From assembly GCF_001677475.2 (NCBI RefSeq), contig NZ_CP015229.1: a stretch of DNA of 64,000 nucleotides. One strand, given 5' to 3'. The position numbers were made by a program, and so were the translations under genes. A model generated the notes under the pieces. That model saw only the letters and a list, made by a program, of their open reading frames with translations, made no database searches and was not told the DNA's origin. This DNA is from Escherichia coli. Its GTDB lineage: Bacteria; Pseudomonadota; Gammaproteobacteria; Enterobacterales; Enterobacteriaceae. Positions within the stretch are counted from its first letter, which is position 1, and every line of letters begins with the position of its first letter. Positions 3,203 to 37,500 of the stretch are shown piece after piece.

Positions 3203-4174
3203 CCCTGCCAGCGGCGTTCGCGTAATGCGCTCCTCGCCGTTAATGACTTTTGGACCACGGACATGAACCGTGTCGCCATCAAAGGCTTCAACGACGGCGT
3301 GGTCGGTTAACTCCACATGGTTTTCAATTATCACCGCATCTGTAATACGGCTCTTACCTTGTATTACAACGTGCTCGTCGAGCAGAATCGGTCCGCCACG
3401 TACCACGGCATTTCCGCCAATCAAGACATGATGTTTTAACACACAATTACCTTCCACAATGGCATATTCCGCCACCTGCGAACTGTAATGAATCGTCGGA
3501 ATGGCATCTTCTTCTATGCCAGCTTTCACCTGCGCGTGACCGTAGACTTTAGCGCAATCGCATAGCCATACGTTGTTCTCTTCATTACCTTCAACACTGG
3601 CAAAATCAAAAACTTCGGCGCGATGTTCAATAAAAGCATACCGGACGACGGCATCGCCATAAATTTGTGCCTGGTGGACAATACGCGAGGCGCTAACCCT
3701 CGCGCGATCATAAATTTGTAGCAGGAGTTGATGGTCGGGCGTTAAGCCTTGTGCGGCGACGATCATAGAATGTTGATCAATTAAGGCGTGACCAAATATT
3801 CTACATTGACCGCAAACTAATGAGTCACGAATGGTGACGCTGTCACTTATATATGCACCCTGGCTGATTTCACTATTATCGATCCAGACATTATCCGTTG
3901 CGTATACCTCTCCCCACAGCACGCTTATGCCGGTGATACGCGTATTCCCGGAAATCACCGCTCCGCCGAACGCAATAGCATTCTGGTCGTAAATCCAGCA
4001 ATTTCCTTCCTGTGCTAACACCGTTTCGCAATCGATCCAGCCGCCAGCGGTTCCTGCTATCACATCGTTAAAATCGCTCATGGCGATAATCTGCCGTAAT
4101 AACACACTTTTTTTAGTGCCATCATCCTGATAACTAAAGGCTCGCTGTTCTTCACTTAGACGATATTTGCGCAT
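3194..4174 (-). CDS. ydcK: Hexapeptide-repeat family protein YdcK
   Basis: 326 aa, repetitive hexapeptide-like composition; convergent with rimL as in K-12. Confidence 0.85.
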
Positions 4175-6885: not shown

Positions 6886-8058
6886 TTATCGGTTTCTGTC
6901 AGCGATTAAATTCAACACCACGTAACAAACGCCTCCGGCAATTAAACCCCAAAACGCAGAACCAATCCCGACCAGTGTCAATCCACTTGCCGTTACCAGA
7001 AATGCCACCACCGCCGCGTCGCGCTCACGCTCATTATGCAGCGCCTGATACAAACTGCCGCCAATGGTACTTAACAGCGCCAGACCTGCCAGCATCTGGA
7101 TCCAACTTACGGGCAGGGCAGCCATCATCCCGGTAATGGCACTACCAAACAGACCTGCGAGCAAATAGAAAATGCCGGCAACGGCAGCTGCCAGCCAACG
7201 TTGATCTTTATCCGGATGCGCTTCCGGGCTTTGGCAAATAGCCGCGGTGATTGCCGCAATACCGACGGAATAAACGCCGAAAGGGGAAAAAACCAGTGCC
7301 AGCAATCCAGTAAATACAATTAATGGCGAAACAGGAGCTGAATATCCGGCTGCTTTCATTGCTGCGATACCCGGTGCGTTTTGCGATGCCATCGTCACCA
7401 GAAAAAGGGGGAGTGCAACGCTCAGGCTGTGAGCAAACGAAAAATCAGGGGTAATATAAGTGGGGAGAACGGGTTTAAAGACAATATCAGTTGTGACAAC
7501 GTCACCTTGCGCGATAACGATCACGATCCCAATAATCATCGCGGCAATTACCGCATAGCGCGGCGCAACGGCCCTGGTTGCCAGCCATACCAGCAACATA
7601 CTGCCACACAACGTAAATTGACCATCCAGACTGGCAAACGCCTGTAAACCAAAGCGTAATAAAATCCCGGCAAGCATTGCCGCCGCAAGCGAGTGTGGAA
7701 TAATGCGCATCAGACGAGCAAAGAGTCCCGTTATGCCGCAGAGGACTATTAACGCGTTGGTGACAATAAAAACGCCGATGGCTTCGTTAAGTGTTAGTCC
7801 CTGCAATCCGGTGACCAACAAAGCCGCGCCAGGCGTTGACCATGCGGTGAGAACAGGTACGCGATACCATAATGTCAGAGTCAGCGTACTGACGCCCATT
7901 GCCAGCCCCAGCGCCGTCATCCAGCCAGAGATTTGTGCAGTGGTGGCTCCGGCGACAATCGCTGCTTGCCAGATTATTGCCGCTGAACTGGCGTAGCCAA
8001 TTAATACCGCCAGAAACCCCGCCAGTAGCGTGGGTGGAGGAATAGAAAACAGACGCAT
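6886..8058 (-). CDS. ydcO: BenE-family inner membrane transporter YdcO
   Basis: 390 aa from ATG (complement of 8056-8058), N-terminus MRLFSIPPPTLLAGF; the 477-aa track ORF includes an upstream extension. Confidence 0.85.
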   Translation of the reverse strand: MRLFSIPPPTLLAGFLAVLIGYASSAAIIWQAAIVAGATTAQISGWMTALGLAMGVSTLTLTLWYRVPVLTAWSTPGAALLVTGLQGLTLNEAIGVFIVTNALIVLCGITGLFARLMRIIPHSLAAAMLAGILLRFGLQAFASLDGQFTLCGSMLLVWLATRAVAPRYAVIAAMIIGIVIVIAQGDVVTTDIVFKPVLPTYITPDFSFAHSLSVALPLFLVTMASQNAPGIAAMKAAGYSAPVSPLIVFTGLLALVFSPFGVYSVGIAAITAAICQSPEAHPDKDQRWLAAAVAGIFYLLAGLFGSAITGMMAALPVSWIQMLAGLALLSTIGGSLYQALHNERERDAAVVAFLVTASGLTLVGIGSAFWGLIAGGVCYVVLNLIADRNR

Positions 8059-8149
8059 AGTCACCTCGTGCGTTATAACGTACAGGTACCGTAGCATTTG
8101 TCCGTTATAACGCACAAGTGATAAACTTCCGTTTTGCCGGAGGAGTCGC

Positions 8150-8686
8150 ATGGAAAATCTCGCTCGCTTTTTATCCACCACACTTAAACAACTACGCCAG
8201 CAGCGCGGCTGGAGTCTTTCGCGATTGGCAGAAGCGACGGGCGTTTCTAAAGCGATGTTAGGGCAGATTGAGCGTAATGAATCCAGCCCGACGGTCGCGA
8301 CATTATGGAAAATTGCCACCGGGTTGAATGTGCCATTTTCGACATTTATTTCTCCGCCGCAGTCCGCAACGCCTTCAGTTTATGATCCACAACAGCAGGC
8401 GATGGTGATCACTTCGCTGTTTCCTTATGATCCACAACTCTGCTTTGAACACTTCTCGATTCAGATGGCATCTGGTGCAATAAGCGAATCGACGCCCCAT
8501 GAGAAGGGGGTAATCGAACATGTCGTCGTCATTGATGGACAACTTGATCTGTGCGTTGATGGTGAATGGCAGAGCCTTAATTGTGGGGAAGGCGCTCGAT
8601 TTGCTGCAGACGCCACGCATGTCTATCGTAATCGTGGGGAGCAAATCGTACATTTTCATTCCCTCATCCATTACCCGCGCAGTTAA
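8150..8686 (+). CDS. ydcN: HTH (XRE-type)/cupin transcriptional regulator YdcN
   Basis: 178 aa; N-terminal helix-turn-helix (SRLAEATGVSKAMLGQIERN) and C-terminal cupin-like region. Confidence 0.85.
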   Translation: MENLARFLSTTLKQLRQQRGWSLSRLAEATGVSKAMLGQIERNESSPTVATLWKIATGLNVPFSTFISPPQSATPSVYDPQQQAMVITSLFPYDPQLCFEHFSIQMASGAISESTPHEKGVIEHVVVIDGQLDLCVDGEWQSLNCGEGARFAADATHVYRNRGEQIVHFHSLIHYPRS

Positions 8687-22940: not shown

Positions 22941-25031
22941 TTACTCAAATCGCCACGCAATATTCATGCCGACACCATAATTTCGTCCGGGCGCAGGTTC
23001 GTAATATCGCCCGTTTGACTCATTGACAATGACAGAACCAACGTATTCTTTATCGAATAAATTATCGACACGACCAAATAAATCCACGGTTAAATTGTGG
23101 TAATTGTATTTATACCCGGTGAATAAGCCGACGAGAGTATAAGACGGCGCTTTTGCCGTATTTTCATCATCTGCCATAATATCGCCCATATAACGCGCTT
23201 CCGTGCCTGCATACCAGCCATCTTCCGGTACATAACCTATCGACGCAAAGCCCATATTACGGGCGATCCCTGGCATCCGATTACCGTTACAATCCTGTTC
23301 GTTGCAAACATTGCTGCGATAGGTCGCATCAAGCCAGGTCCAGGACGCGTTTACGCGAAAATCTCCCGCGAAACGTTGATCCCATGCCAGTTCAGCGCCT
23401 TGACGACGGGTCTTTCCGGCATTTTTGTAAGTCGTACGCCCACCGCTACTGCTATCGACAACAATTTCATCATCGGTGTCGGTCTGGAACAATGCGAGAC
23501 TAAGCAGCCCATCACCAATACGCGTTTTACTGCCGATCTCAATTGTATCGTTGGTGGATGGTTTTAAACCAAAGTTCATACCGCTTTGCCCATCAGCGCG
23601 ATAAGACAGTTCATTAATCGTCGGCGTTTCAAAACCTCGCCCGGCTGCCAGATAGATATTCCAGGCATCGGTCATTGCATATTTTAACGAACCGGCAGGT
23701 AGCCATTTATGATAACTGTCATCGCCGTTACCCGGAGTAACGTAATGGTCGTTGGAATCAAACCACACGGAGCTGTAGCGCACGCCAGCATCCAGCGACA
23801 GTTTTTCGCTCAGCTGCCACTGCGTCTGTAAATAGGGATCGACGTTCCACATCAGATTGCGTTCGTCGCGACGCAACTCACCTTTTTGCCCGTATTCCGG
23901 CACGCCGCTATTCAGGCGGAAGTTATTGTAGCCCTTGCGGTTTTCACTCATGTTTTCGTAGTTCAGGCCGGTAGTGAACGTGACCGGAACGCCCAGTTCA
24001 CCACGGTGTGTCCAGCGGCTGTCTATTCCCTGGTAATGGCGTTGCAGGGTAATCACGCCGCCCGCATGTGACGGGTTAAGTTGTGGTGCCATGGGTATTG
24101 ACTGGTACTGGGTCGTTTCTCGCTCTCCGGCATACATCATCACACTCATATCATCCCGCGAACTCAGGCTACGTTCATAGCGCAACCCAGCCTGAGTTTG
24201 CTTGATGGTTTTTCGCGTGTCGTACTGTTCTGCACGAGGCGCTTGTTGTGGATTCGCCTTCCATTCTGCTTTTGTTAGACCACCTGGGTCATCTGCTTTG
24301 ATATCCACACTATTGAAAATCAGGCTTAATTTGCTGGCTTCATCAATGCGCACGCCCAGTTTGGCATTGGCTAAATTTTTCTGTGCGCCACTATGGTTAC
24401 GATAACCGTGGGTCGTAAAACGCGTGGTTGAGACGGTGTAATCGACATCGCCAGGCTGTGTGCCGTCGCCCGTTACACCCGTTGCTTTCAGCCCATAGCG
24501 CCAGCTGCCAAAACTGCCGTAGTAACTACTGGCTTCAATAGTTGGTGGCAGTTGTCCGGTCTGGGTGGTGACATTCATTACCCCACCAGACGCGTTGCCA
24601 TACAGGGCAGAGAAGGGGCCACGCAGCACTTCCACATTTTGCACACTGCTTAAATCGATGTTGGATGTTTGCCCTTGCCCGTCGGGCATGGTGGCGGGAA
24701 TACCGTCCACATACAGGCGAATACCGCGAATTCCGTAAGTGGAACGGGAGCCAAATCCGCGAATCGACAGCTGTAAATCTTGCGCATAGTTCTGCCGGTT
24801 TTGTACCTGCAAACCAGGCACGCCGGTCAGTGATTCGGACAAGTTAATGCGCGGTGTTGCCAGGCGCATCTCCTTGCCATCCACCACGCTCACGGCTGCA
24901 GGGGTATCCAGTTCTGAAACCACCTGCGGCGCGGCACTGACAATCATGGTCTGTTCATCAGCGGCAAAAACAACGGGGGAAAGAACAAGCAGTGCGGGCA
25001 AAACGGTCTGTCGAACGAAAACAATCTTCAT
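22941..25031 (-). CDS. yncD: TonB-dependent outer membrane receptor YncD
   Basis: 696 aa; signal peptide; C-terminal aromatic residue (…AWRFE) typical of TonB-dependent barrels. Confidence 0.9.
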   Translation of the reverse strand: MKIVFVRQTVLPALLVLSPVVFAADEQTMIVSAAPQVVSELDTPAAVSVVDGKEMRLATPRINLSESLTGVPGLQVQNRQNYAQDLQLSIRGFGSRSTYGIRGIRLYVDGIPATMPDGQGQTSNIDLSSVQNVEVLRGPFSALYGNASGGVMNVTTQTGQLPPTIEASSYYGSFGSWRYGLKATGVTGDGTQPGDVDYTVSTTRFTTHGYRNHSGAQKNLANAKLGVRIDEASKLSLIFNSVDIKADDPGGLTKAEWKANPQQAPRAEQYDTRKTIKQTQAGLRYERSLSSRDDMSVMMYAGERETTQYQSIPMAPQLNPSHAGGVITLQRHYQGIDSRWTHRGELGVPVTFTTGLNYENMSENRKGYNNFRLNSGVPEYGQKGELRRDERNLMWNVDPYLQTQWQLSEKLSLDAGVRYSSVWFDSNDHYVTPGNGDDSYHKWLPAGSLKYAMTDAWNIYLAAGRGFETPTINELSYRADGQSGMNFGLKPSTNDTIEIGSKTRIGDGLLSLALFQTDTDDEIVVDSSSGGRTTYKNAGKTRRQGAELAWDQRFAGDFRVNASWTWLDATYRSNVCNEQDCNGNRMPGIARNMGFASIGYVPEDGWYAGTEARYMGDIMADDENTAKAPSYTLVGLFTGYKYNYHNLTVDLFGRVDNLFDKEYVGSVIVNESNGRYYEPAPGRNYGVGMNIAWRFE

Positions 25032-25271
25032 GAAAAAAGCCAGGTTAAGAATGGGAAAACACCGTCATGGTAATAAAATTGTAAATTTATGGAAAACGAA
25101 ACGGCACGATACGTTAAGTAATTGAGAAAATTGTAGTCGTAACGGCAAGAAATGCTCCACATTTGAGAAAATAATGATTACCATTCCCATTTATAACAAG
25201 AGCGTAACGATGATTACGCTTAGCGAAGCATTGTGAAGCAGCAAAAATATCGGTCATCAAAGGGAGTCGTC

Positions 25272-26333
25272 ATGCATTTACGTCATCTGTTTTCATCGCG
25301 CCTGCGTGGTTCATTACTGTTAGGTTCATTGCTTGTTGCTTCATCATTCAGTACGCAGGCCGCAGAAGAAATGCTGCGTAAAGCGGTAGGTAAAGGTGCC
25401 TACGAAATGGCTTATAGCCAGCAAGAAAACGCGCTGTGGCTCGCCACTTCGCAAAGCCGCAAACTGGATAAAGGCGGCGTGGTTTATCGTCTTGATCCGG
25501 TTACTCTGGAAGTGACCCAGGCGATCCATAACGATCTCAAGCCGTTTGGTGCCACCATCAATAACACGACTCAGACGTTGTGGTTTGGTAACACCGTAAA
25601 CAGCGCGGTCACGGCGATAGATGCCAAAACTGGCGAGGTGAAAGGCCGTCTGGTGCTGGATGATCGTAAGCGCACGGAAGAGGTGCGCCCGCTGCAACCG
25701 CGTGAGCTGGTGGCAGACGATGCCACGAACACCGTTTACATCAGTGGTATTGGTAAAGAGAGCGTGATTTGGGTCGTTGATGGCGAGAATATCAAACTGA
25801 AAACCGCCATCCAGAATACCGGTAAAATGAGTACCGGTCTGGCGCTGGATAGCAAAGGCAAACGTCTTTACACCACTAACGCTGACGGCGAATTGATTAC
25901 CATCGACAGCGCCGACAATAAAATCCTCAGCCGTAAAAAGCTGCTGGATGACGGCAAAGAGCACTTCTTTATCAACATCAGCCTTGATACGGCCAATCAG
26001 CGTGCATTTATCACCGATTCTAAAGCGGCAGAAGTGTTAGTGGTCGATACCCGTAATGGCAATATTCTGGCGAAGGTTGCGGCACCGGAATCACTGGCTG
26101 TGCTGTTTAACCCAGCACGTAATGAAGCCTACGTAACGCATCGTCAGGCAGGTAAAGTCAGTGTGATTGACGCGAAAAGCTATAAAGTGGTGAAAACGTT
26201 CGATACGCCGACTCATCCGAACAGCCTGGCGCTGTCTGCCGATGGTAAAACGCTGTATGTCAGTGTGAAACAAAAATCCACTAAACAGCAGGAAGCAACC
26301 CAGCCGGATGATGTGATTCGTATTACGCTGTAA
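25272..26333 (+). CDS. yncE: Periplasmic beta-propeller protein YncE
   Basis: 353 aa from ATG 25272 with AGGGAG Shine-Dalgarno; signal peptide. Confidence 0.88.
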   Translation: MHLRHLFSSRLRGSLLLGSLLVASSFSTQAAEEMLRKAVGKGAYEMAYSQQENALWLATSQSRKLDKGGVVYRLDPVTLEVTQAIHNDLKPFGATINNTTQTLWFGNTVNSAVTAIDAKTGEVKGRLVLDDRKRTEEVRPLQPRELVADDATNTVYISGIGKESVIWVVDGENIKLKTAIQNTGKMSTGLALDSKGKRLYTTNADGELITIDSADNKILSRKKLLDDGKEHFFINISLDTANQRAFITDSKAAEVLVVDTRNGNILAKVAAPESLAVLFNPARNEAYVTHRQAGKVSVIDAKSYKVVKTFDTPTHPNSLALSADGKTLYVSVKQKSTKQQEATQPDDVIRITL

Positions 26334-26445
26334 TAGATATGGCGAGGGTGAAAACTGAGAGACGTGCCTGACTTTTATCACGCCGTATCCGGCACCTTCG
26401 TCAGTAATTTGAATTTGCCCGGCACGTAGCCGGGCAATTTTGCAA

Positions 26446-27945
26446 TTAACTCGCCGTTTCAGGTTTAAACACAATTTCCTGTTTTTCTTCATCTTCCTCG
26501 ACGACTGGCGCAGTGCTGTGAATTTCAGCAACGCGTTTGCGCACACCAAACCAGCCTATAACCAGCAGAATACCGATAATCGGCAGCGCCGCGATGGTAT
26601 AAGTCCCGTTCGGGTAATCGAATGCCATCAGCACCAGGACACTCAGTAAAAACAGTAATGTCAGCCAGGAAGTGAAGGGCGCGCCAGGCAGTTTAAAACT
26701 GACATCCGCTGCTTTGCCTTCTTTAATCGCTTTACGCAGGCGCATCTGGCACACGATGATAAACGCCCATGAAGCGATGATTCCCAGCGACGCGAAGTTC
26801 AACACAATCTCAAATACGCGCGACGGCACCAGATAGTTGAGGAATACGCCGACGACATAAACGACCAGTGTCGCCAGAATCCCGGCATACGGCACATGCT
26901 GACGGCTCATTTTCGCCATAAAACTCGGTGCGGAACCGCCCATCGCCATCGAGCGTAGAATACGTCCGGTGCAGTACAGACCTGAGTTCAGGCTGGAGAG
27001 GGCAGCGGTCAGCACCACAATGTTCATAATGCTGCCGATGTACGGCACACCCAGTTTAGAGAAAAACGTCACGAACGGACTTTGCCCAGCCTGATACGCG
27101 CTCCACGGCAATAACATAACCAGCAACACCACGGAGCCGACGTAAAACAGGCCAATACGCCAAATCACACTGTTAATCGCTTTAGGCACCATGGTCTGCG
27201 GATCTTTACATTCTCCGGCAGCTGTACCCACCATTTCAATGGAGGCAAAAGCAAACACTACGCCCTGAATCAACACCAGAGCAGGAAGCAAACCGTGGGG
27301 GAAGAAGCCGCCATTATCGGTGATTAAATGAAAGCCAGTGGTGTTGCCATCCAGCGGCTGACCACTACCGAGGAACACTGTACCCACGACCAAAAAGGTC
27401 ACAATGGCGAGCACTTTAATAAGCGCAAACCAGAACTCCATCTCCGCAAACCATTTCACACCAATCATATTCATGGTGCCAACGATGGTAAGTGCAGCGA
27501 GCGCAAAGACCCACTGCGGCACGCCGCCAAACGCCCCCCAGTAATGCATATACAGCGCTACAGCGGTGATATCGACAATCCCCGTCATCGCCCAGTTAAT
27601 GAAGTACATCCAGCCTGCAACGTAAGCGGCTTTCTCTCCTAAAAACTCACGGGCATAAGAGACAAAGCTGCCACTGGAAGGGCGATGTAACACCAGCTCA
27701 CCCAATGCACGCAGAATAAAAAACGAAAACAGGCCACATATTAAATAAACCAGTGCCAGCGCAGGACCCGCCATTTGCAGTCGGGCTCCTGCACCTAAAA
27801 ACAAGCCGGTGCCAATCGCGCCGCCAATGGCGATCATCTGCACCTGGCGATTGCCCATCGCTTTGTGATACCCCTCTTCGTGGGCATTAAGCCAGCGGCG
27901 TTTCGCGGCGTGTTGATCTGGAGTGTCGGTGTCGTGTTTACTCAT
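26446..27945 (-). CDS. ansP: L-asparagine permease (APC family)
   Basis: 499 aa from ATG (complement of 27943-27945); polytopic amino acid permease sequence. Confidence 0.92.
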   Translation of the reverse strand: MSKHDTDTPDQHAAKRRWLNAHEEGYHKAMGNRQVQMIAIGGAIGTGLFLGAGARLQMAGPALALVYLICGLFSFFILRALGELVLHRPSSGSFVSYAREFLGEKAAYVAGWMYFINWAMTGIVDITAVALYMHYWGAFGGVPQWVFALAALTIVGTMNMIGVKWFAEMEFWFALIKVLAIVTFLVVGTVFLGSGQPLDGNTTGFHLITDNGGFFPHGLLPALVLIQGVVFAFASIEMVGTAAGECKDPQTMVPKAINSVIWRIGLFYVGSVVLLVMLLPWSAYQAGQSPFVTFFSKLGVPYIGSIMNIVVLTAALSSLNSGLYCTGRILRSMAMGGSAPSFMAKMSRQHVPYAGILATLVVYVVGVFLNYLVPSRVFEIVLNFASLGIIASWAFIIVCQMRLRKAIKEGKAADVSFKLPGAPFTSWLTLLFLLSVLVLMAFDYPNGTYTIAALPIIGILLVIGWFGVRKRVAEIHSTAPVVEEDEEKQEIVFKPETAS

Positions 27946-28295
27946 TGCTCTCCCTGATTGCTTTAATGAAAAAGTCATATAAGTTGCCATGAACAATGTT
28001 TATTCATCCTGGCGATGACAAGATTCACCATTATTCTTTATGGGTATAACTGTCGGCGCAGAATCCTACCTTTTATCGTGTAACGATGCAAAATAATCCC
28101 GCTATAAATATGAGGGGATAAAGGCGGCCGGCAACAAAATAGCAACCTGATGAAATTTTGACGGAAACAACCACTATTGGTTTGATGATGCCCGACGGCA
28201 GTCCTACTCTTGCGCCACTCGTTCGTCGCTCTGAACGCCAGTGGTTGCAGTGGACACTGGCGTGGTTGGCTCATTGAATAGTGAGGTGCTAGCAC

Positions 28296-28472
28296 ATGAC
28301 GGGTTTCAGGGGTAATACACCAAATACCAATACAATTGCTGATTATATGAGCCAATTGCCGATGTTACAGAAAAGGCTAAAAAATGTAAGAGGCATGCAG
28401 GATGATAAACGCGCTATTGCCCAACAGGGGTTTCTGGAATTAGTCCTGTTCCATGGTCATTACAACTCTTAA
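28296..28472 (+). CDS. Hypothetical small protein (58 aa)
   Basis: ATG 28296 preceded by GAGGTG about 8 nt upstream; no recognisable family; not in ORF track (under 60 aa). Confidence 0.25.
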   Translation: MTGFRGNTPNTNTIADYMSQLPMLQKRLKNVRGMQDDKRAIAQQGFLELVLFHGHYNS

Positions 28473-28882
28473 AACATTACTTCAATATAATTAATGTGTA
28501 TATCATTCCCGATATTAATTTATGAAGTGAATTTGATATATTCCGAATTCTTAATTTACATTACTAATGTATGGGGCATAACGTTAAGATTGCTATGTGC
28601 AGATTAACATATCAGGGTGGGGCGGTAGCGTTTACAGATATTAATCAATTGATGAGAATTATGTTAACTGCGTAATCATTTGCATCGATTATTGATATTG
28701 AAGATAGATTAATAAAAATGCTGAGAATTAATGTTAAAAAATCATAACGGGAAACGTTGATAACTTGCTTTGATTTCATTTTCTATGAAGATGATGTCAT
28801 CAATACTGTATAAAGTGGAAATGTTGAACATCAAAGAGCGTTTGTGTTTTATCTGAAAGATATTATTTCCAGGGGGAAGGAT

Positions 28883-29013
28883 ATGTCATTAAGGAGAATG
28901 ACATCTGGTGAATTAACATTGGCCAGATCGATTTTTGAGAATACAATTGATTATAGCAAGGTATGGATCCACAATGAAAAATATTTGCCTGGTCAAGGGG
29001 AAAGAACAGCGAT
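28883..29013 (+). pseudogene. 5' portion of a host ORF interrupted by the prophage left end
   Basis: ATG 28883 with strong GGGGGAAGGA Shine-Dalgarno; the reading frame runs straight across the Mu-type end at 29014 into phage sequence, so the track ORF 28844..29083 is a host-phage fusion. Confidence 0.45.
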
Positions 29014-29040
29014 TGTATTGATTCACTTGAAGTACGAAAA
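29014..29040 (+). repeat. Prophage left terminal transposase-binding site (L1-like)
   Basis: Begins with 5'-TG; sequence matches the recalled Mu attL terminus. Confidence 0.75.
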
Positions 29041-29352: not shown

Positions 29353-29877
29353 TTATACAGCTTTCTTTACATCGTTTTCTCTTACAGGGAAATTATGTTC
29401 TTTGCCTTCATACTGAGACAAAATCTCTCTCACTTTTTCAGGTGGTAATGCCTGAAGAGTTTGCAGGGTTTTCTGTTGATCCACAGTAATCCCTAATGCC
29501 TCTAATGCCTTATCTTTACTGACAATTGTAGGCATAAGTCCTTTAATCCCTGCTACACGAATGATCTCCACAGCTGCGGCCTGCTCATCTGGTGTTAAGA
29601 AGCTCATTGCATAAATTAGCCTCTCATCAACTGTATGGGCGATTGATGTATGCACTGGTTTATCAGAAAGTGAGGCTCCTTTAATGGCCCTACGTGTTTC
29701 TTCTGGCAGACTGTTGATGTGATACTCATAAGCGACACCTTTCCCACCGTGACGCTGACGTTTTACCCAATCTTCCGCCACAGCTTTCCTGGTAATGTTA
29801 GTCGCCAACTTTGGTACACCAGGCATCCCTTCCAGCTCTTTCGCATTAAACCATTCTTTGATTTCAAAAGACATCAT
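29353..29877 (-). CDS. c: Transposable-phage repressor (Mu c / D108 repressor family)
   Basis: 174 aa, divergent from ner-A-B; N-terminal about 60 aa are roughly 50 percent identical to the N-terminus of the adjacent transposase. Confidence 0.8.
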   Translation of the reverse strand: MMSFEIKEWFNAKELEGMPGVPKLATNITRKAVAEDWVKRQRHGGKGVAYEYHINSLPEETRRAIKGASLSDKPVHTSIAHTVDERLIYAMSFLTPDEQAAAVEIIRVAGIKGLMPTIVSKDKALEALGITVDQQKTLQTLQALPPEKVREILSQYEGKEHNFPVRENDVKKAV

Positions 29878-30062: not shown

Positions 30063-30284
30063 ATGCATATGAATAAAAGAACTAACCGCCAAGATTGGCA
30101 CAGAGCTGACATCGTTGCAGAGCTACGAAAACGCAATATGTCACTAGCTGAATTGGGAAGATCTAATCATCTTTCGTCTTCAACATTAAAAAATGCTTTG
30201 GATAAGAGATATCCGAAAGCGGAGAAAATCATTGCAGATGCACTGGGAATGACACCGCAAGATATTTGGCCGTCTCGATACTAG
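30063..30284 (+). CDS. ner: Ner-family DNA-binding protein (early-operon negative regulator)
   Basis: 73 aa; motifs [14 protein letters not shown] and IWPSRY shared with Mu Ner and E. coli Nlp. Confidence 0.85.
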
Positions 30285-30291
30285 GTGCGCT

Positions 30292-32280
30292 ATGAAAGAA
30301 TGGTATACAGCAAAAGAGTTGCTCGGTTTGGCAGGTTTACCAAAGCAAGCCACTAACATTACACGTAAGGCACAAAGAGAAGGCTGGGAGTTCAGGCAGG
30401 TTGCAGGGACTAAAGGTGTATCATTTGAATTCAATATCAAATCATTCCCTGTCGCATTACGTGCTGAAATTCTGTTGCAACAAGGGAGAATTGAAACAAG
30501 CCAGGGGTATTTTGAAATCGCCCGCCCCACGCTGGAAGCCCACGATTACGATCGCGGGGCACTGTGGAGCAAATGGGATAAAGCCAGCGATTCCCAGCGC
30601 AGACTTGCTGAAAAATGGTTGCCTGCAGTTCAGGCCGCAGACGAAATGCTGAACCAGGGGATTTCAACAAAAACGGCTTTTGCGACCGTTGCAGGACATT
30701 ACCAGGTCAGCGCATCCACTTTGCGAGACAAGTATTACCAGGTACAGAAGTTTGCGAAGCCTGACTGGGCGGCTGCACTTGTTGATGGACGTGGTGCATC
30801 TCGTCGCAATGTTCACAAAAGTGAATTTGACGAGGATGCCTGGCAGTTTCTGATTGCAGATTATCTGCGACCGGAAAAACCCGCCTTCCGCAAATGTTAT
30901 GAGCGTCTGGAACTGGCAGCCCGCGAGCATGGCTGGAGTATTCCCTCCCGTGCCACGGCCTTTCGCCGGATTCAGCAACTGGACGAGGCAATGGTTGTTG
31001 CCTGTCGTGAAGGTGAACATGCACTGATGCATCTGATACCGGCACAGCAGCGAACTGTGGAACACCTGGACGCCATGCAGTGGATCAACGGCGACGGTTA
31101 TCTGCATAACGTCTTTGTACGCTGGTTTAACGGTGATGTGATCCGCCCGAAAACATGGTTCTGGCAGGATGTGAAAACCCGAAAAATTCTGGGCTGGCGC
31201 TGCGATGTGAGCGAGAACATTGATTCAATTCGCCTCTCGTTCATGGATGTGGTGACACGCTACGGCATCCCGGAAGATTTTCACATCACCATTGATAACA
31301 CCCGTGGGGCAGCGAATAAATGGCTGACGGGGGGCGCGCCCAATCGTTACCGCTTTAAGGTGAAAGAGGACGATCCAAAGGGACTGTTTTTACTGATGGG
31401 CGCGAAAATGCACTGGACAAGCGTTGTTGCCGGTAAAGGCTGGGGCCAGGCAAAACCTGTTGAACGTGCTTTCGGTGTTGGTGGGCTTGAGGAATACGTT
31501 GATAAGCATCCGGCACTGGCTGGCGCATATACGGGGCCAAATCCGCAGGCAAAACCTGATAACTATGGCGACCGTGCTGTTGATGCAGAGCTGTTTCTGA
31601 AAACCCTTGCTGAAGGTGTGGCGATGTTCAATGCCAGAACAGGCCGTGAAACAGAAATGTGCGGGGGCAAACTCTCGTTTGATGATGTTTTCGAGCGTGA
31701 ATACGCCAGAACGATTGTGCGTAAGCCAACCGAAGAACAAAAACGGATGCTGTTACTGCCTGCCGAAGCGGTGAACGTTTCACGCAAAGGCGAGTTTACG
31801 CTTAAAGTTGGCGGCTCCCTTAAAGGCGCGAAAAACGTTTATTACAACATGGCGTTAATGAATGCAGGCGTGAAAAAAGTTGTGGTCAGGTTTGATCCGC
31901 AGCAGCTACACAGCACAGTTTATTGCTACACCCTGGACGGTCGGTTTATCTGTGAAGCGGAATGTCTGGCACCTGTTGCATTTAATGATGCTGCGGCAGG
32001 CCGTGAATATCGCCGCCGCCAGAAACAACTGAAATCTGCAACTAAAGCAGCCATTAAGGCGCAGAAACAAATGGACGCGCTGGAAGTTGCTGAACTGCTG
32101 CCGCAGATAGCCGAACCAGCAGCACCAGAATCAAGGGTTGTTGGTATTTTCCGGCCTGTGGGTAACACAGTACGGGTTAAATATCGCACCCCCGATGATA
32201 AATACGAACCCGCTCGTGATGAATATCTGAATCAGTCACTGGATATTCTGGAACAGAAAAGACGTAAAAAAGCCATTTAA
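30292..32280 (+). CDS. A: DDE transposase (MuA family)
   Basis: 662 aa; Mu-transposase-like sequence throughout; N-terminal domain shared with the repressor. Confidence 0.93.
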
Positions 32281-32318
32281 TTAACGTTTAAACAAAATTT
32301 AATTACGAGGTTATTTAG

Positions 32319-33278
32319 ATGAATATTTCCGATATTCGCGCAGGACTGCGCACGCTTGTAGACAATGGAGAAACCACGCTGACACGCATCGCCAGTGAAT
32401 CAGGCGTGGCCCTGAGCACAGTCAGTGGTTTTGTGAATGATAAATATAACGGCAACATGGAATCAGTCGGGCGCACACTGGAACGCTGGCTGGAAAACTA
32501 TCACCGCGCAGAAGAACTGCCGGAACCCCCGCGTTTTGTGGAAACTGCAACAGCCCGTCAAATCTGGACAAGTATGCGTTTTGCTAATCTGACCGGAACC
32601 ATTGCTGTTATCTGTGGCAATCCAGGAGTGGGTAAAAGCGAAGCAGCCCGTGAATTTTGTCGCACTAATAATAATGTCTGGATGATCACCATCGCGCCAT
32701 CCCGTGCCAGTACGCTGGAATGTCTGACTGAACTTGCCGAAGAGTTGGGAATGAATAATGCACCCTGTCGCAAAGGGCCGCTTTCCCGTAATCTGCGTCG
32801 CCGCCTGAAAGGGACGCAGGGACTGGTCATTGTTGACGAAGCTGATCACCTTGACACCGAAGCGCTGGAAGAGCTCCGTCTGTTACAGGAGTCCGCCTGT
32901 ATTGGTCTGGTTCTGATGGGGAATCACCGTGTTTATTCAAATATGACCGCTAATGGCGACAGAACAATTGAGTTTGCCCGTCTGTTTTCCCGTATTGCAA
33001 AGCGCACAGCAATTAATAAAACCAAAGAAGACGATGTAAACGCAATTGCGGATGCCTGGCAGATTACCGGGAAAAATGAACGGGAATTATTACAGCAGAT
33101 TGCACAAACGCCTGGTGCGCTCCGCATTATGAATCAAACGCTGCGCCTTGCTGTTATGAATGCCTTCGGTAAAGGCGAACGTGTTAATGAGGATTATCTG
33201 CGTGAGGCTTACAAAGAGTTAGACCAGGACGTTGATGTTTCGATGCTGCTGGGTGTGCAAGGGGATGCTGAATCATGA
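32319..33278 (+). CDS. B: Transposition ATPase / target DNA activator (MuB family)
   Basis: 319 aa; Walker A GNPGVGKS; immediately downstream of A. Confidence 0.9.
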
Positions 33279-33502
33279 TGTCACGGAATATCAAAATGGC
33301 AACGGAAGTAAAGAGCTGGTTACAGGAGCGCGGCAGCCACGTCAACGAATCCTGGCTGGGCGTGGCCCGCCCGGTGCTTGAAATCACCTGCCCACCACCG
33401 GAGCTTGTCAGGAATGCTGTCAGGATTATGGAGCGTAAATCAGGGGTTGCCCGTTCAGTCTGGACGGCCCGCCTTAATGGTTGCCAGATTATCTGGCGTT
33501 AA
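33275..33502 (+). CDS. Hypothetical early protein (positional analogue of Mu Kil)
   Basis: 75 aa; ATGA overlap with B stop; assignment by position only. Confidence 0.4.
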
Positions 33503-33534
33503 TAACGGCTTATTTATTTGTGAGGAATAACAAA

Positions 33535-33804
33535 ATGGCAAAAGTAATCTTTGAATTTAACCGCATGGAAGATGTTGAGTTTCAGAAAAAAGGAGGTTTC
33601 TTTGTAGGAATGAGTGTGCAACTGGAAGAACAGTCTCCTAAGGAGCAAACCGGACCGCATGACGTGATGGCAGTCATTATCAAGAGCATGGCTCCTGAAA
33701 TTATTGAAAAAGCAACCCAGGAGTTGTTGAAGTCAGCCAGAGAACTTGGGCTGGAAGCCGAAGGCGAGTTATTCCGGTATAACCCGGATGCAGCTAAATA
33801 TTAA
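33535..33804 (+). CDS. Hypothetical early protein
   Basis: 89 aa from ATG 33535 with GAGGAA Shine-Dalgarno. Confidence 0.5.
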   Translation: MAKVIFEFNRMEDVEFQKKGGFFVGMSVQLEEQSPKEQTGPHDVMAVIIKSMAPEIIEKATQELLKSARELGLEAEGELFRYNPDAAKY

Positions 33805-33824
33805 TTCGCAAAGGAACGCTGACA

Positions 33825-34244
33825 ATGAAAGCCAAAATCAGAAACGAAATTCAGGCATTAATTCGGATTAAAGAGCGTAATAGCAATGGTGGAGACTTGC
33901 GCGAATTTATTTGCGCGCGCGAAGTTGAGGGATATGGCGAAAAGACTTACCTGATTGCATTCGACCATTACAGCATTTGTGCGCGTTATTGCGGGGAGGC
34001 GGTATTCCGCGCCATTACGTTTGGCAATGCCTTCAATGTGGATTTATGGGAATACGTCATGGACCGCGAATACATCAGCGCGTCAGACCCGGACGCACGG
34101 GAGCAGTGGAAGAACATCTGGCGCGATTACCGGCAAATGGCGAAAGGCTGGACGCAGGGGACGTATTCTTCCCTTGCCCTGAAAGCGGTTCAGCTATCTG
34201 TGCGGCATATGCTGTCGGCACGATTCGAACTCCCGGTGCACTGA
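33825..34244 (+). CDS. Hypothetical early protein
   Basis: 139 aa; operon context. Confidence 0.55.
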   Translation: MKAKIRNEIQALIRIKERNSNGGDLREFICAREVEGYGEKTYLIAFDHYSICARYCGEAVFRAITFGNAFNVDLWEYVMDREYISASDPDAREQWKNIWRDYRQMAKGWTQGTYSSLALKAVQLSVRHMLSARFELPVH

Positions 34245-34260
34245 TAAGGAGGGCATCATC

Positions 34261-34548
34261 ATGATAATCCCTCGCAAAAGATGGTCACGTGAAGACCGGG
34301 AATTTATCGAAGCCAGTGTCGGGAAAATGACAGTTGAAGAAATGGCGAAAAAACTGAACGTTGCCACAAGCGCCCTGCGGGCACATGCCAGAAGGTACGG
34401 AATATCGTTGTGTGTATACAAAATCAGTGAGCACGACAAATATTTGTGTCGAGAACTTTATAAAGAAGGGGTGGCTATTCATGTCATTGCCCAAAAGATG
34501 GAATTAAGCAATCGGGCTGTATCCAGCGTTGTATACAGTGAATATTAA
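34261..34548 (+). CDS. Hypothetical early protein with HTH-like segments
   Basis: 95 aa; two helix-turn-helix-like stretches (MTVEEMAKKLNVATSALRAHARRYG and VAIHVIAQKMELSNRAVSSVVY). Confidence 0.5.
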   Translation: MIIPRKRWSREDREFIEASVGKMTVEEMAKKLNVATSALRAHARRYGISLCVYKISEHDKYLCRELYKEGVAIHVIAQKMELSNRAVSSVVYSEY

Positions 34549-34568
34549 TTAACAGGAGCTTTATTTAT

Positions 34569-35093
34569 ATGGCTAAACCAGCAAAACGAATCAGGAATGC
34601 CGCAGCAGCTTATGTTCCTCAATCCCGCGATGCCGTGGTGTGTGATATTCGCTGGATTGGTGACCTGCAACGCGAAGCGGTACGACTTGAAACGGAAATG
34701 AATGACGCTATTGCTGAAATTACGGAGAAATACGCCTCACGGATTGCGCCGCTTAAAACCCGTATTGAAACCCTTTCAAAAGGCGTTCAGGGGTGGTGTG
34801 AAGCGAACCGTGACGAACTGACGAACGGCGGCAAGGTGAAGACGGCCAACCTGGTAACCGGTGATGTGTCATGGCGTCAGCGCCCACCATCAGTAAGTAT
34901 TCGCGGTGTGGATGCGGTGATGGAAACGCTGGAGCGTCTTGGCCTGCAACGCTTTATTCGCACGAAACAGGAAATCAACAAGGAAGCGATTTTACTGGAA
35001 CCGAAAGCGGTCGCAGGTGTTGCCGGAATTACAGTTAAATCAGGCATTGAAGATTTTTCTATTATTCCGTTTGAACAGGAAGCCGGTATTTAA
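34569..35093 (+). CDS. gam: Host-nuclease inhibitor Gam (Mu Gam family)
   Basis: 174 aa, same length as Mu Gam and matching recalled sequence character. Confidence 0.88.
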   Translation: MAKPAKRIRNAAAAYVPQSRDAVVCDIRWIGDLQREAVRLETEMNDAIAEITEKYASRIAPLKTRIETLSKGVQGWCEANRDELTNGGKVKTANLVTGDVSWRQRPPSVSIRGVDAVMETLERLGLQRFIRTKQEINKEAILLEPKAVAGVAGITVKSGIEDFSIIPFEQEAGI

Positions 35094-35191
35094 TACCACC
35101 ACGAATATTTAATTAGTTCACTTTCTTTTAATTATGGCGCGATGCGTCAGGGGATTGCTCGCGCCTGAATCTGATATACGGGATATAAAAA

Positions 35192-35734
35192 ATGATTAAT
35201 ACAAAAGTTCTGAGCGGCGTCAGCACATTATTACAGGTTTACGGGCGTCTGACCTGCGGCGTACTGGCTGAAAAAATGAAGATGCCACCTTCCTCAATGG
35301 TGTATTTCCTGCGTGATGCGGTTGATGCCGGAGTTCTCACTGAATGCAACGGATTTTATGACGTTCCGCGCCCTCGTCCGACGCCGCCAGTAATACGAAA
35401 CGCAACAACGGAGCACCCCGATGTTGATGATGCTCAATGGTGCGCGTTCCGCCGCTCTTTGCCCTGGCTGGAAGGCAATGCCATTCCGGCACTGGCAAAA
35501 GAATTTGCGACAGGCGTACTGACCTGCGAGTCGGTTTACATCGTTGCTGAAGTGGATGACGATATGTGCAAACAGGGAATGCCCCGTTTTGTGATGGCTT
35601 ATATCGATATCCGGCTGGGTCGTTTTATTTGTGGCTCCAGTGGCTGGAATATCACCGACCACATCCTGCGCTATCTCATTCTTGATTATTCACCAGCTCC
35701 GGCAGCAACACAGGAAGTCAGTGAACATGATTAA
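35192..35734 (+). CDS. Hypothetical early protein
   Basis: 180 aa; no recognisable motif. Confidence 0.55.
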   Translation: MINTKVLSGVSTLLQVYGRLTCGVLAEKMKMPPSSMVYFLRDAVDAGVLTECNGFYDVPRPRPTPPVIRNATTEHPDVDDAQWCAFRRSLPWLEGNAIPALAKEFATGVLTCESVYIVAEVDDDMCKQGMPRFVMAYIDIRLGRFICGSSGWNITDHILRYLILDYSPAPAATQEVSEHD

Positions 35735-35909
35735 GTCAACTGGCTTTGTCCTGCTGGTTGGCACCTGCGGGAATGATGCCTGCGATGCCATTCCGGTAAC
35801 GGAAAAAATCTGGCCCACAGAGCAGGCATGTATGCAGGTGATGGAGCGCATACAAAAACGTTATCCCAGTGAAATCTTTTATTGCGAAGAGGTATTACGA
35901 AATGAATAA
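35727..35909 (+). CDS. Hypothetical small protein with N-terminal hydrophobic segment
   Basis: 60 aa from ATG 35727 overlapping the preceding stop; MIKSTGFVLLVGTCGNDAC resembles a signal/lipoprotein-like N-terminus but is not a canonical lipobox. Confidence 0.4.
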   Translation: MIKSTGFVLLVGTCGNDACDAIPVTEKIWPTEQACMQVMERIQKRYPSEIFYCEEVLRNE

Positions 35910-36228
35910 ACCAGAGAATAAAGAAATGAAATTCACACCAGTTGATATTGATGGCGTCATGGCTAATTTAAAGATGCTGGAACGTATGCACGATATCGTT
36001 AAATATGGTATTGAGCATGACCTCACCGCCAGAGAAGTCCGGAGCATTATTAACCGTGAAATGAACCAGGTGGAAGCTGCCGTGGCGCTACAAAATGAAG
36101 CAGCCCGCGAGGAATACATTCGTCGCAGGCTGGGACTATCAAATAAAGATATTCTTACGGATGCTCAGATGGCTGAGGCTTTTGATATTCATCAGAATCT
36201 TGGTCTAACAAACGGATGGTATCAGTGA
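35902..36228 (+). CDS. Hypothetical early protein
   Basis: 108 aa from ATG 35902 with GAGGT Shine-Dalgarno. Confidence 0.5.
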   Translation: MNKPENKEMKFTPVDIDGVMANLKMLERMHDIVKYGIEHDLTAREVRSIINREMNQVEAAVALQNEAAREEYIRRRLGLSNKDILTDAQMAEAFDIHQNLGLTNGWYQ

Positions 36229-36421
36229 TTAGCTGTGATATTTGCAGAATGGGATTATTCGTTGTTCTCAATGCCGGAGCCTCTGCCGCTCCGCTTGCTG
36301 CGGCTTCGAGGATCGTTTTGCCTTCCTCTGCGGTAATCAGCCCCTTTCTGACAAGGAGTATCAGCAACCTTGAAGCAATGACATACCCTGCAACATCATA
36401 AGGCTGTTCACTGTTTTTCAT
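36155..36421 (-). CDS. Hypothetical antisense-oriented small protein
   Basis: 88 aa from ATG (complement of 36419-36421) with GAGGA Shine-Dalgarno 7 nt upstream on the reverse strand; 3' end overlaps the preceding plus-strand ORF by 74 nt. Confidence 0.35.
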   Translation of the reverse strand: MKNSEQPYDVAGYVIASRLLILLVRKGLITAEEGKTILEAAASGAAEAPALRTTNNPILQISQLITDTIRLLDQDSDEYQKPQPSEHP

Positions 36422-36494
36422 AAAAAGTTTCCTCTGTTTAGTGAGTGGATTCTGGCGGTGTTGCCGCACCGCCCCCTTTTCTGGAGGTACGATA

Positions 36495-37046
36495 ATGAAT
36501 CGCACATCCCTGATTAAATTAATTCATGTCGCCCGTCGTGATCTACAACTCGACGATGACACTTACCGCGCCTTTCTGGTGCAGTGCACAGGCAAGACCA
36601 GCTGCCGCGAGCTGTCCGTTGCACAACTGGAACGTGTGCTCGATGCCATGAAAGAGTGCGGTTTTAAAAAGCAGAAAAAACATCCCCGCCGTCGCTTTAA
36701 GGGGCATGTCACACCGCGCGAGAAGATTTATAAAATCTGGCAGCAGATGTTTCAGGATGGCTTTATCGCTGATGGCAGCGATGTCGCGCTGGACAAATAC
36801 GTTGCACGCCTGACGGCCAGACGTAATGGCGGTCAGGGGGTTTCCACGCTGGCCTGGTGTCACGGGGAATCGTTGCAGGTTGTGCTCGAAACGCTCAAGC
36901 AGTGGCACATGCGCTGCATCCGGGAAGCCTTTGCCCGACATGGTGTGCCGTTACCTGCAAGCCCATCCGGGCGGGAACTACGCGGATATGATGCACTGAC
37001 CAGTGCATATGCCCGCGCACGAAACAGCGGGAGAATTGCTGTATGA
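36495..37046 (+). CDS. gemA: GemA-family protein (Mu gp16-like)
   Basis: 183 aa from ATG 36495 with GGAGGT Shine-Dalgarno; position upstream of mor. Confidence 0.8.
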   Translation: MNRTSLIKLIHVARRDLQLDDDTYRAFLVQCTGKTSCRELSVAQLERVLDAMKECGFKKQKKHPRRRFKGHVTPREKIYKIWQQMFQDGFIADGSDVALDKYVARLTARRNGGQGVSTLAWCHGESLQVVLETLKQWHMRCIREAFARHGVPLPASPSGRELRGYDALTSAYARARNSGRIAV

Positions 37047-37492
37047 AACAGATGAAAGAGCAGGATTTATTCGAAGACCTTCGGGACGACAGCGTTCTGG
37101 AATATCTTCATGATTACCAGGAAAACACCGCTTATCCGGCGTTACTTTCTGAACTGAACGCACTGCTGCGTAAAGAGCTGGCCCGGATTGGCGCAGACCC
37201 TGCTCATTCCCTTGAGCTGGTTGTGGCGATTTGTCGCCATATCGGCGGGATGCAGGTTTATGTTCCGAGGGGGAATATTCTGGAGAATCTTGTCCGGGAT
37301 ATGCGTATCTGGCGTGATTTTAACGGTCATAATATTCCTGAACTGGTTCAGCGTTACGGGGTGACGTATAAAACCGTCTACAAGGCCATCAAACGGATGC
37401 GACGTCTGGAGCGCAATAAATACCAGCCGGATTTGTTTTACCCCTCCCCGAACCTGCCTCACCCCGTTCGTCGTCCACCACGACGCCCTTAA
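37043..37492 (+). CDS. mor: Mor transcription activator (Mor/C family)
   Basis: 149 aa; sequence closely matches recalled Mu Mor (DLFEDLRDDSVLEYL, VVAICRHIGGMQVYVPRG, YKAIKRMRRL). Confidence 0.88.
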   Translation: MKQMKEQDLFEDLRDDSVLEYLHDYQENTAYPALLSELNALLRKELARIGADPAHSLELVVAICRHIGGMQVYVPRGNILENLVRDMRIWRDFNGHNIPELVQRYGVTYKTVYKAIKRMRRLERNKYQPDLFYPSPNLPHPVRRPPRRP

Positions 37493-37500
37493 TCAATGAA

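Follow-up and report, generated by a model that had tools for sequence, protein, structure and literature searches.

Introduction

The window analysed here is a stretch of 64,000 nucleotides from Escherichia coli (contig NZ_CP015229.1 of RefSeq assembly GCF_001677475.2). Between positions 33275 and 36421 it contains the gene gam and eight small open reading frames (ORFs), which lie between the genes B and gemA of a prophage related to the transposable phages Mu and D108. The interval opens at an ATG that overlaps the stop codon of B and closes at the start codon of a minus-strand ORF. The initial annotation had placed it in the semi-essential early (SE or SEE) region of a transposable prophage, a placement borne out by the end of B at 33278, the start of gemA at 36495 and a Mu left end at 29014. 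Because it lies between B and gemA of a Mu-type prophage, we regard the interval, with high confidence, as the counterpart of the Mu SE region, that is, as the SE region, built of cassettes, of a transposable prophage of the Mu/D108 type with its insertion point at 29014.

For about forty years the SE region of Mu has stood without functions at the level of individual genes. It comprises 14 ORFs, few of which have an assigned phenotype (PMC3325207), and its functions are described as “largely unknown” (PMC3820752, PMC3325207, PMC4553209). When the region was deleted, lysogen recovery returned to 100%, as did the viability of cells that had received a replication-defective Mu (PMC3325207). Among the small ORFs only Kil has a described phenotype: expression of Mu kil yields spherical cells (PMC3961180, citing Waggoner 1989), an effect reported for Mu only. 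Our literature searches for individual roles of Mu gp7, gp8, gp9, gp11, gp14 and gp15 found no functional data. Recent work has linked the neighbouring proteins Gam and GemA to bacterial immunity; Mu-type Gam blocks the loading of RecBCD at DNA ends, and the Gam and the GemA of a Mu-like phage of Pseudomonas each license restriction by Gabija (PMC12407980).

Genes of the interval

Besides gam, the plus strand of the interval carries seven small ORFs (75, 89, 139, 95, 180, 60 and 108 amino acids), which are the seven of 60–180 amino acids listed beside Gam in the initial annotation; an eighth, of 88 amino acids, lies antisense at 36155–36421 and its start codon forms the end coordinate of the interval. 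The proteins were compared by BLASTP with those annotated in Mu, in D108 and in the closest complete E. coli genome, and were scanned against PHROGs. On both counts the earlier view that these ORFs could not be assigned to any family proved wrong, since every ORF of the interval falls within a PHROG family, six have homologues in Mu (Kil, gp8, gp9, gp11, gp14 and gp15, at 53–85% amino acid identity) and one, gp7, has a homologue in D108 only. Comparison with the Mu and D108 early regions thus matched all ORFs except that of 60 amino acids. The initial annotation had also held that clear homology of every ORF to characterised Mu early proteins would speak against its expectation of undescribed functions here; the homology is found for all but the 60-amino-acid ORF, whereas “characterised” extends no further than Kil.

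The first plus-strand gene is a kil homologue (33275–33502) encoding 75 amino acids with an isoelectric point (pI) of 10.8 and 84% identity to Mu and D108 Kil over 74 residues; it covers the whole of the phrog_2743 profile (E 7e-39) and has a ratio of non-synonymous to synonymous substitution rates (dN/dS) of 0.09. It is followed on the same strand by a D108-type allele of gp7 (33535–33804; 89 amino acids, pI 4.9), which is 75% identical to D108 gp7, belongs to phrog_2230 (E 1e-36) and has a dN/dS of 0.27. A longer version of this ORF beginning at a TTG at 33481 was considered, and homologues give it no support. BLAST finds no match between the window gp7 and Mu gp7, and the Mu-type and D108-type families show weak profile similarity (hhalign probability 34%). 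The gp8 homologue (33825–34244, plus strand; 139 amino acids) is 79% identical to Mu gp8 and matches phrog_3690 (E 1e-81), a very narrow family that has 11 representatives in a set of 1.84 billion proteins and forms 24 clusters at 90% identity, all from E. coli or Salmonella. The gp9 homologue (34261–34548, plus strand; 95 amino acids, pI 9.4) is 85% identical to Mu gp9 and falls in phrog_323 (E 3.9e-26), which carries the label “transcriptional regulator, D5-like”, a function given by annotation.

The gam gene itself (34569–35093, plus strand) encodes a Ku-like binder of double-stranded DNA ends of 174 amino acids, 92% identical to Mu Gam, with matches to phrog_491, to Pfam PF07352 (E 4e-40) and to PDB entry 2p2u. 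To its right lie, all on the plus strand, a gp11 homologue (35192–35734; 180 amino acids, acidic, 84% identical to Mu, phrog_1949, with a Gp11_C domain) from a family of 217 clusters in which E. coli and Salmonella alone appear among the matches listed; the 60-amino-acid ORF (35727–35909; phrog_16556, E 1.4e-27), which has no Mu or D108 counterpart; and a gp14 homologue (35902–36228; 108 amino acids, 71% identical to Mu and 37% to D108, phrog_6075, E 1.7e-42, dN/dS 0.34). The antisense ORF at 36155–36421 is a gp15 homologue, 53% identical to that of Mu (phrog_8747, E 5.6e-25, dN/dS 0.41). Its 3′ end overlaps gp14 by 74 nucleotides, its N-terminal 36 amino acids are conserved, it has exactly 88 codons in four genomes, and outside the gp14 overlap its substitutions relative to Mu number 22, 17 and 32 on codon positions 1, 2 and 3.

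All ORFs of the interval except gp15 lie on the strand of the early operon, and Shine-Dalgarno-like sequences precede most of them. The gaps between plus-strand genes are operon-like (16–32 nucleotides), the sole larger one being the 98 nucleotides after gam, and three genes start within the end of the gene before them, kil overlapping B by 4 nucleotides, the 60-amino-acid ORF overlapping gp11 by 8 and gp14 overlapping the 60-amino-acid ORF by 8. A motif scan gave no convincing internal terminator ahead of the one that follows mor at 37498, promoter and terminator motifs were not in excess over shuffled sequences in the promoter scan, and an Rfam search at E up to 1 over 28.5–38.5 kb returned chance matches alone. 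All ORFs that can be paired with a Mu or D108 gene show purifying selection in comparison with these phages (dN/dS 0.09–0.41 by the Nei-Gojobori method, at a synonymous divergence of 0.3–1.7), and the range is 0.05–0.56 when Mu, D108 or the E. coli STEC388 prophage is used for comparison. Given this purifying selection, the operon-like spacing, the ribosome-binding sites and the kept lengths, the ORFs are by all sequence signs genes and not chance frames.

Variation among relatives

Every SE family was scored in 80 IMG/VR loci that encode Gam relatives, in Mu and D108, and in three prophages of E. coli. Loci whose Gam is at least 90% identical and whose kil–gemA interval is complete were taken as close relatives (n=29), and about 50 further loci carry a more distant Gam. 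Among the close relatives kil, gp9, gam and gemA are each present in 29 of 29, as is gp7, which is of the D108 type in 20 and of the Mu type in nine. The remaining families are found less often: gp8 and gp11 in 23 each, the 60-amino-acid ORF in 22, gp14 of any type in 13, gp15 in nine and always accompanied by gp14 of the same type, DUF5420 in eight, gp6 in seven, gp13 in five and gp12 in three. At least five more unassigned ORF types (70–131 amino acids) occupy the space between gam and gemA in relatives. Where Gam is 81% identical or less almost no small ORF is recognisable, and Gam, GemA and Mor are still present. Some relatives also have copies of gp11 and of the 60-amino-acid ORF that carry frameshifts.

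From this presence and absence across the 29 close relatives, it follows that the region consists of a fixed core (kil, gp9, gam and gemA) and of exchangeable cassettes situated mainly to the right of gam. The resulting map of natural variation has gp6, gp8, DUF5420, gp11, gp12/13, the 60-amino-acid ORF and gp14/15 as optional genes, with gp7 in two allelic forms. The description of the region as a zone of gene turnover is therefore supported, and the cassette pattern fits the term “accessory” and is compatible with a role in an arms race.

Conserved non-coding segments

The variable zone is framed by two unusually conserved non-coding segments. On its left is the 98 bp between gam and gp11 (35094–35191), which contains an inverted repeat, GGCGCGA...TCGCGCC. 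In an alignment of Mu, D108 and E. coli prophages, six sequences in all, its columns average 92% identity, compared with about 85% in the genes on either side. Its predicted RNA fold is unremarkable (z -1.4). In relatives, DUF5420 or other cassettes are inserted directly after this segment, where the zone of variable cassettes has its left edge. It also includes a mini-ORF, MARCVRGLLAPES..., that in several relatives extends into an ORF of 94–104 amino acids with an acidic tail.

On the right, just outside the interval and directly upstream of the gemA ribosome-binding site, lies a GC-rich hairpin on the plus strand at 36454–36473, GGCGGTGTTGCCGCACCGCC, followed by CCCTTTTC. It gives a terminator-like match (-23.4 kcal/mol, z -2.4) and is near-invariant in Mu, D108 and E. 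coli prophages, with one loop base C or A, even where the flanking sequences differ. Loci in which a gp15-type or D108-type arrangement precedes gemA have the hairpin, and those with another cassette next to gemA lack it. It may serve to terminate transcription in part, to stabilise or process RNA, or to bind a protein. At the gp15 position D108 has an unannotated antisense ORF of 119 amino acids (7853–8212, minus strand) whose start adjoins the conserved hairpin, and a comparison of this ORF with gp15 gave no significant similarity.

Predicted folds of the encoded proteins

A Pfam search with a concatenation of all ten proteins returned Phage_Mu_Gam, GemA and Gp11_C (PF25754, named after Mu gp11) alone, sequence and profile searches of the PDB with the interval proteins matched Gam alone, and the NCBIfam scan gave no credible family for the ORFs of the interval. 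PADLOC yielded nothing credible, and nothing below E 0.002, for any defence-system protein model; these models represent defence and not anti-defence, so that this null result is uninformative on the latter. The ORF in which the initial annotation saw two helix-turn-helix (HTH)-like segments is gp9. In NCBIfam it is the sole ORF with matches of this kind, to the sigma-70 region-4 and Cbp1 HTH families and far below cut-offs, and against the Pfam HTH families it scores E 0.07 or higher. Together with the phrog_323 assignment, these matches lead us to predict that gp9 is a DNA-binding protein with a double HTH. With lower confidence, gp11 may combine an N-terminal winged helix, matched on a low-confidence structural model, with the Gp11_C domain, and is a predicted nucleic-acid binder.

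Kil, gp7, gp8, the 60-amino-acid protein, gp14 and gp15 were joined by Gly/Ser linkers and modelled as one AlphaFold2 structure from an alignment of chimeric full-length rows. The model is confident for Kil alone, as an N-terminal helix followed by a five-stranded sheet with a predicted local distance difference test score (pLDDT) of 72–86 barring one loop; the other parts are below 65, and gp8 is below 45. At this low confidence gp14 and gp15 appear helical, gp7 takes a beta-beta-long helix arrangement and the 60-amino-acid protein beta-beta-alpha-beta, and a Foldseek search with the fusion model returned noise. The profile searches and structure prediction called for in the initial annotation have thus given a family to every ORF, and with respect to function they reach as far as the predicted DNA-binding folds of gp9 and gp11.

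The four-cysteine protein

The 60-amino-acid ORF, in which the initial annotation had correctly noted a hydrophobic N-terminus, encodes a small acidic protein and occupies the position held in Mu by gp12–gp13. Identity with the cysteine-rich gp13 of Mu and D108 was considered and rejected, there being no BLAST match and a global alignment z-score of 1.4 against shuffled sequences. The family comprises 12 clusters, whose members come from E. coli, Salmonella, Shigella and Tatumella, and homologues of 39–55% identity are found in non-transposable temperate phages of Yersinia, Aeromonas and Hafnia. Mu-like prophages and integrase-type temperate phages have this family in common, its positions in two loci, L086 and L087, being 3501–3686 and 3492–3662. 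In Aeromonas phage pAEv1818 the homologue lies between RecE/RecT and xis-int, and in the Yersinia vB_YenM phages it is upstream of xis-int, among small early genes that include those for SSB, the Lar restriction-alleviation protein and methyltransferases.

Across the homologues G6, F7, L10, V11, C14, G15, D17–A21, P23 and E26 are invariant, and C14, C19, C36 and C53 are kept in all full-length aligned members. A hydrophobic segment followed by a cysteine could indicate a lipoprotein. However, this signal is unsupported because the residue ahead of C14 is T, A, P or S (V-G-T-C in the E. coli form and S-P-C in the Aeromonas form), the N-terminus has no lysine or arginine in three of four divergent members, and only 10–13 residues precede the cysteine; the lipobox [LVI][ASTVI][GAS]C and the basic n-region accordingly fail across the homologues. 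The better reading of the sequences would be that of a small cytoplasmic protein with a four-cysteine, probably metal-binding, site.

The prophage and its surroundings

The left end of the prophage, TGTATTGATTCACTTGAAGTACGAAAAAAACCGGG at 29014, is with the following approximately 230 compared bases near-identical to the left end of D108. It is followed by the repressor gene c (29353–29877, minus strand; 98% protein identity to D108), ner (30063–30284; 100%), the transposase gene A (30292–32280; 97.6%) and B (32319–33278; 77% to the B of Mu or D108). There is a sharp mosaic breakpoint at the A/B boundary (32280–33278), with the left end, c, ner and A at 98–100% to D108 and B at 77%, and related prophages have B proteins of just 38–42% identity. 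To the right of the interval, 36421 lies 73 bases ahead of the start of gemA (36495–37046), which is followed by mor (37043–37492) and a terminator-like hairpin at 37498.

The late region (37500–62000) is not Mu-like in DNA. Among 50,697 deposited phage genomes its best match covers 11% at 73.5% identity, its GC content is 57–60% against 47–51% in the early region, a GH108-type lysozyme stands in place of Mu lys, and no separate C gene is found between mor and the lysozyme gene. The host flank (24000–29013) is the ansP–yncE–pqqU region, in which the prophage has inserted in a small ORF beside an Rhs-associated gene. When compared with 5,426 complete E. coli genomes, this flank reaches 97.3% identity at best, a sign that the host may belong to a divergent Escherichia lineage.

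Proposed role of the region and alternative explanations

By analogy with Mu, the SE block, which follows A and B in the early operon of Mu/D108-type phages, would be transcribed from the early promoter Pe upon induction or infection and would encode dispensable functions of host manipulation; gp8, gp11, the 60-amino-acid ORF, gp14 and gp15 are naturally missing from some relatives. Kil would be lethal to the host and round its cells, and Gam would cap linear DNA ends against RecBCD. Sequence and structural models further suggest that gp9 and gp11 are nucleic-acid-binding regulators and that the small acidic proteins gp7, gp14, gp15 and the four-cysteine protein (pI 4.8–5.4) most likely work through contacts with proteins of the host or the phage. 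Two classical Mu phenotypes that have not been mapped, “cim”, which concerns immunity after superinfection, and “arm”, which concerns the rate of transposition and replication, probably belong to ORFs of the interval. The comparisons show that the four-cysteine gene has been swapped in where Mu has gp12–gp13, and that cassettes are exchanged mainly between the segment after gam and gemA.

Several points weigh against parts of this interpretation. Expression from Pe and the functions of the genes in the window prophage are inferred from Mu, and gp15, its gene being antisense, cannot belong to the Pe transcript. The 60-amino-acid ORF is not a Mu gene. Moreover, the HTH call for gp9 draws on the name of its PHROG family and on sub-threshold NCBIfam and Pfam matches, and the fold-based roles of gp11 and of the small proteins are weak because the structural models are of low confidence (mean pLDDT 55 and 44).

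A different emphasis would make the interval an anti-defence island, in which, besides Gam, at least one of gp7, gp8, gp11, the four-cysteine protein, gp14 and gp15 inhibits host immunity or repair and the turnover reflects an arms race. We think this somewhat unlikely as a whole, and it refines the SE-region explanation and is compatible with it. It would be consistent with precisely these ORFs having a high turnover beside a fixed core of kil, gp9, gam and gemA, with the replacement of almost all small ORFs where Gam is 81% identical or less, and with five of the candidate proteins being small and acidic (pI 4.8–5.4). The presence of the four-cysteine family amid Lar, methyltransferase, SSB and RecET genes of unrelated temperate phages points the same way, as does the interaction of Gam and GemA homologues of a Mu-like phage with Gabija immunity (PMC12407980). 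However, the candidates match no characterised protein in sequence or fold, and turnover is equally expected of neutral or host-range accessory genes. Within these bounds we offer, as a tentative idea that is more doubtful than not, that at least one optional cassette may encode a protein for counter-defence or host takeover, its target as yet undescribed, which would work with Gam on host DNA-end surveillance or restriction. The four-cysteine protein, the best candidate, is of a family common to recombination- and Lar-adjacent regions of unrelated temperate phages, and the antisense gp15/hairpin unit is the second. If this were true, the segment after gam would be a recombination boundary that lets Mu-like phages swap counter-defence genes.

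It could also be argued that part of the interval serves lysogenic conversion or exclusion, with the antisense gp15, or the four-cysteine protein as a secreted lipoprotein, being expressed in the lysogen against superinfection. Here gp15 is the only gene to oppose the early operon, it has its own Shine-Dalgarno sequence, the conserved hairpin stands between it and gemA, and D108 has its different 119-amino-acid antisense ORF at the same place; low-level Pe transcription is known in Mu lysogens (PMC3820752), and the Tatumella homologue of the four-cysteine protein has a canonical V-S-A-C box in addition to the hydrophobic N-terminus followed by a cysteine. Yet the promoter scan found no sigma-70-like promoter for gp15, AlphaFold2 places the N-terminus of the four-cysteine protein in a beta-strand, at low confidence, the variable residue before C14, the few lysines or arginines and the short N-terminal segment speak against a lipoprotein, and the four invariant cysteines fit a metal site better, so that we judge this explanation improbable. 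Least credible of all is that some of the ORFs are not genes and represent chance frames or decaying remnants of a defective prophage. The weakest cases are gp15 (dN/dS 0.41–0.56) and gp8 when set beside its closest relative (0.48, where divergence is low), and the frameshifted copies of gp11 and the 60-amino-acid ORF in some relatives could be taken as signs of decay. In the window, though, all ORFs are intact, their lengths are kept across genomes with differences at 30–60% of the synonymous sites, dN/dS stays well under 1, the ORFs have ribosome-binding sites and coupled starts, and the substitutions in gp15 are enriched at third codon positions. The SE-region explanation, with a fixed core and exchangeable cassettes, is thus the one we prefer.

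Comparison with known systems

The SE region of Mu corresponds to Mup05–Mup15 (NC_000929, 4315–8162), and the window region resembles it in its position between B and gemA, in strand, gene order and operon-like packing, in having homologues of kil, gp8, gp9, gam, gp11, gp14 and the antisense gp15, and in the post-gam segment and the hairpin before gemA. Unlike Mu, it is 3.15 kb rather than 3.85 kb long, lacks counterparts of gp6, gp12 and gp13, has the D108 allele of gp7 and carries the four-cysteine ORF in the place of gp12–gp13; in addition the repressor, ner and A of the prophage are of the D108 type, and its late genes are not Mu-like in DNA. With D108 (NC_013594) the window shares the left end, c, ner and A at 98–100%, the same gp7 allele at 75%, and kil, gp8, gp9, gam and gp11 at 78–92% identity. 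D108 differs from it in having gp6, gp12 and gp13, a divergent gp14 (37%) and the unrelated 119-amino-acid antisense ORF instead of gp15. Over 33532–35706 the DNA of the window aligns with that of D108, Mu, SfMu and Yersinia Mu-like phages at about 85% identity.

The closest counterparts are found in E. coli itself, as Mu-like prophages. Over its full length the interval has 92.8% nucleotide identity to the prophage of strain STEC388 (NZ_CP041425), and it is 95.7% identical, at 86% coverage, to a group from human isolates. STEC388, RIVM_C019217 (NZ_CP087377) and IMG/VR UViG_2778261064 have the same gene set, including the 60-amino-acid ORF and gp14/gp15, with the GH108 lysozyme after mor and a Gam of up to 100% identity. 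Each of these E. coli prophages nevertheless differs by a cassette (gp8 missing, DUF5420 added, gp6 added, or gp7 of the Mu type), some have different transposase/repressor modules, and their SE genes are all annotated as hypothetical. Near-identical prophages are therefore already present, unannotated, in public E. coli genomes. The window region is an ordinary example of a known region whose functions are mostly uncharacterised, and this copy is no more informative than that of Mu. It reveals no new system; the variation map shows which genes merit the first tests for accessory or anti-defence roles, and Mu would be equally usable for them.

More distantly, the accessory early regions of other temperate phages also hold small, dispensable, fast-exchanging genes beside recombination or anti-RecBCD functions. 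The four-cysteine family is physically common to the window and to the regions before xis-int in the Aeromonas and Yersinia phages. No other gene of the interval was found in common with these integrase-type temperate phages, whose strategy of replication and integration is different. Read from its sequence, the prophage is a new mosaic, in which D108-type immunity and transposase are combined with SE genes resembling those of Mu, with one small gene that has been imported, and with a late region unlike that of Mu.

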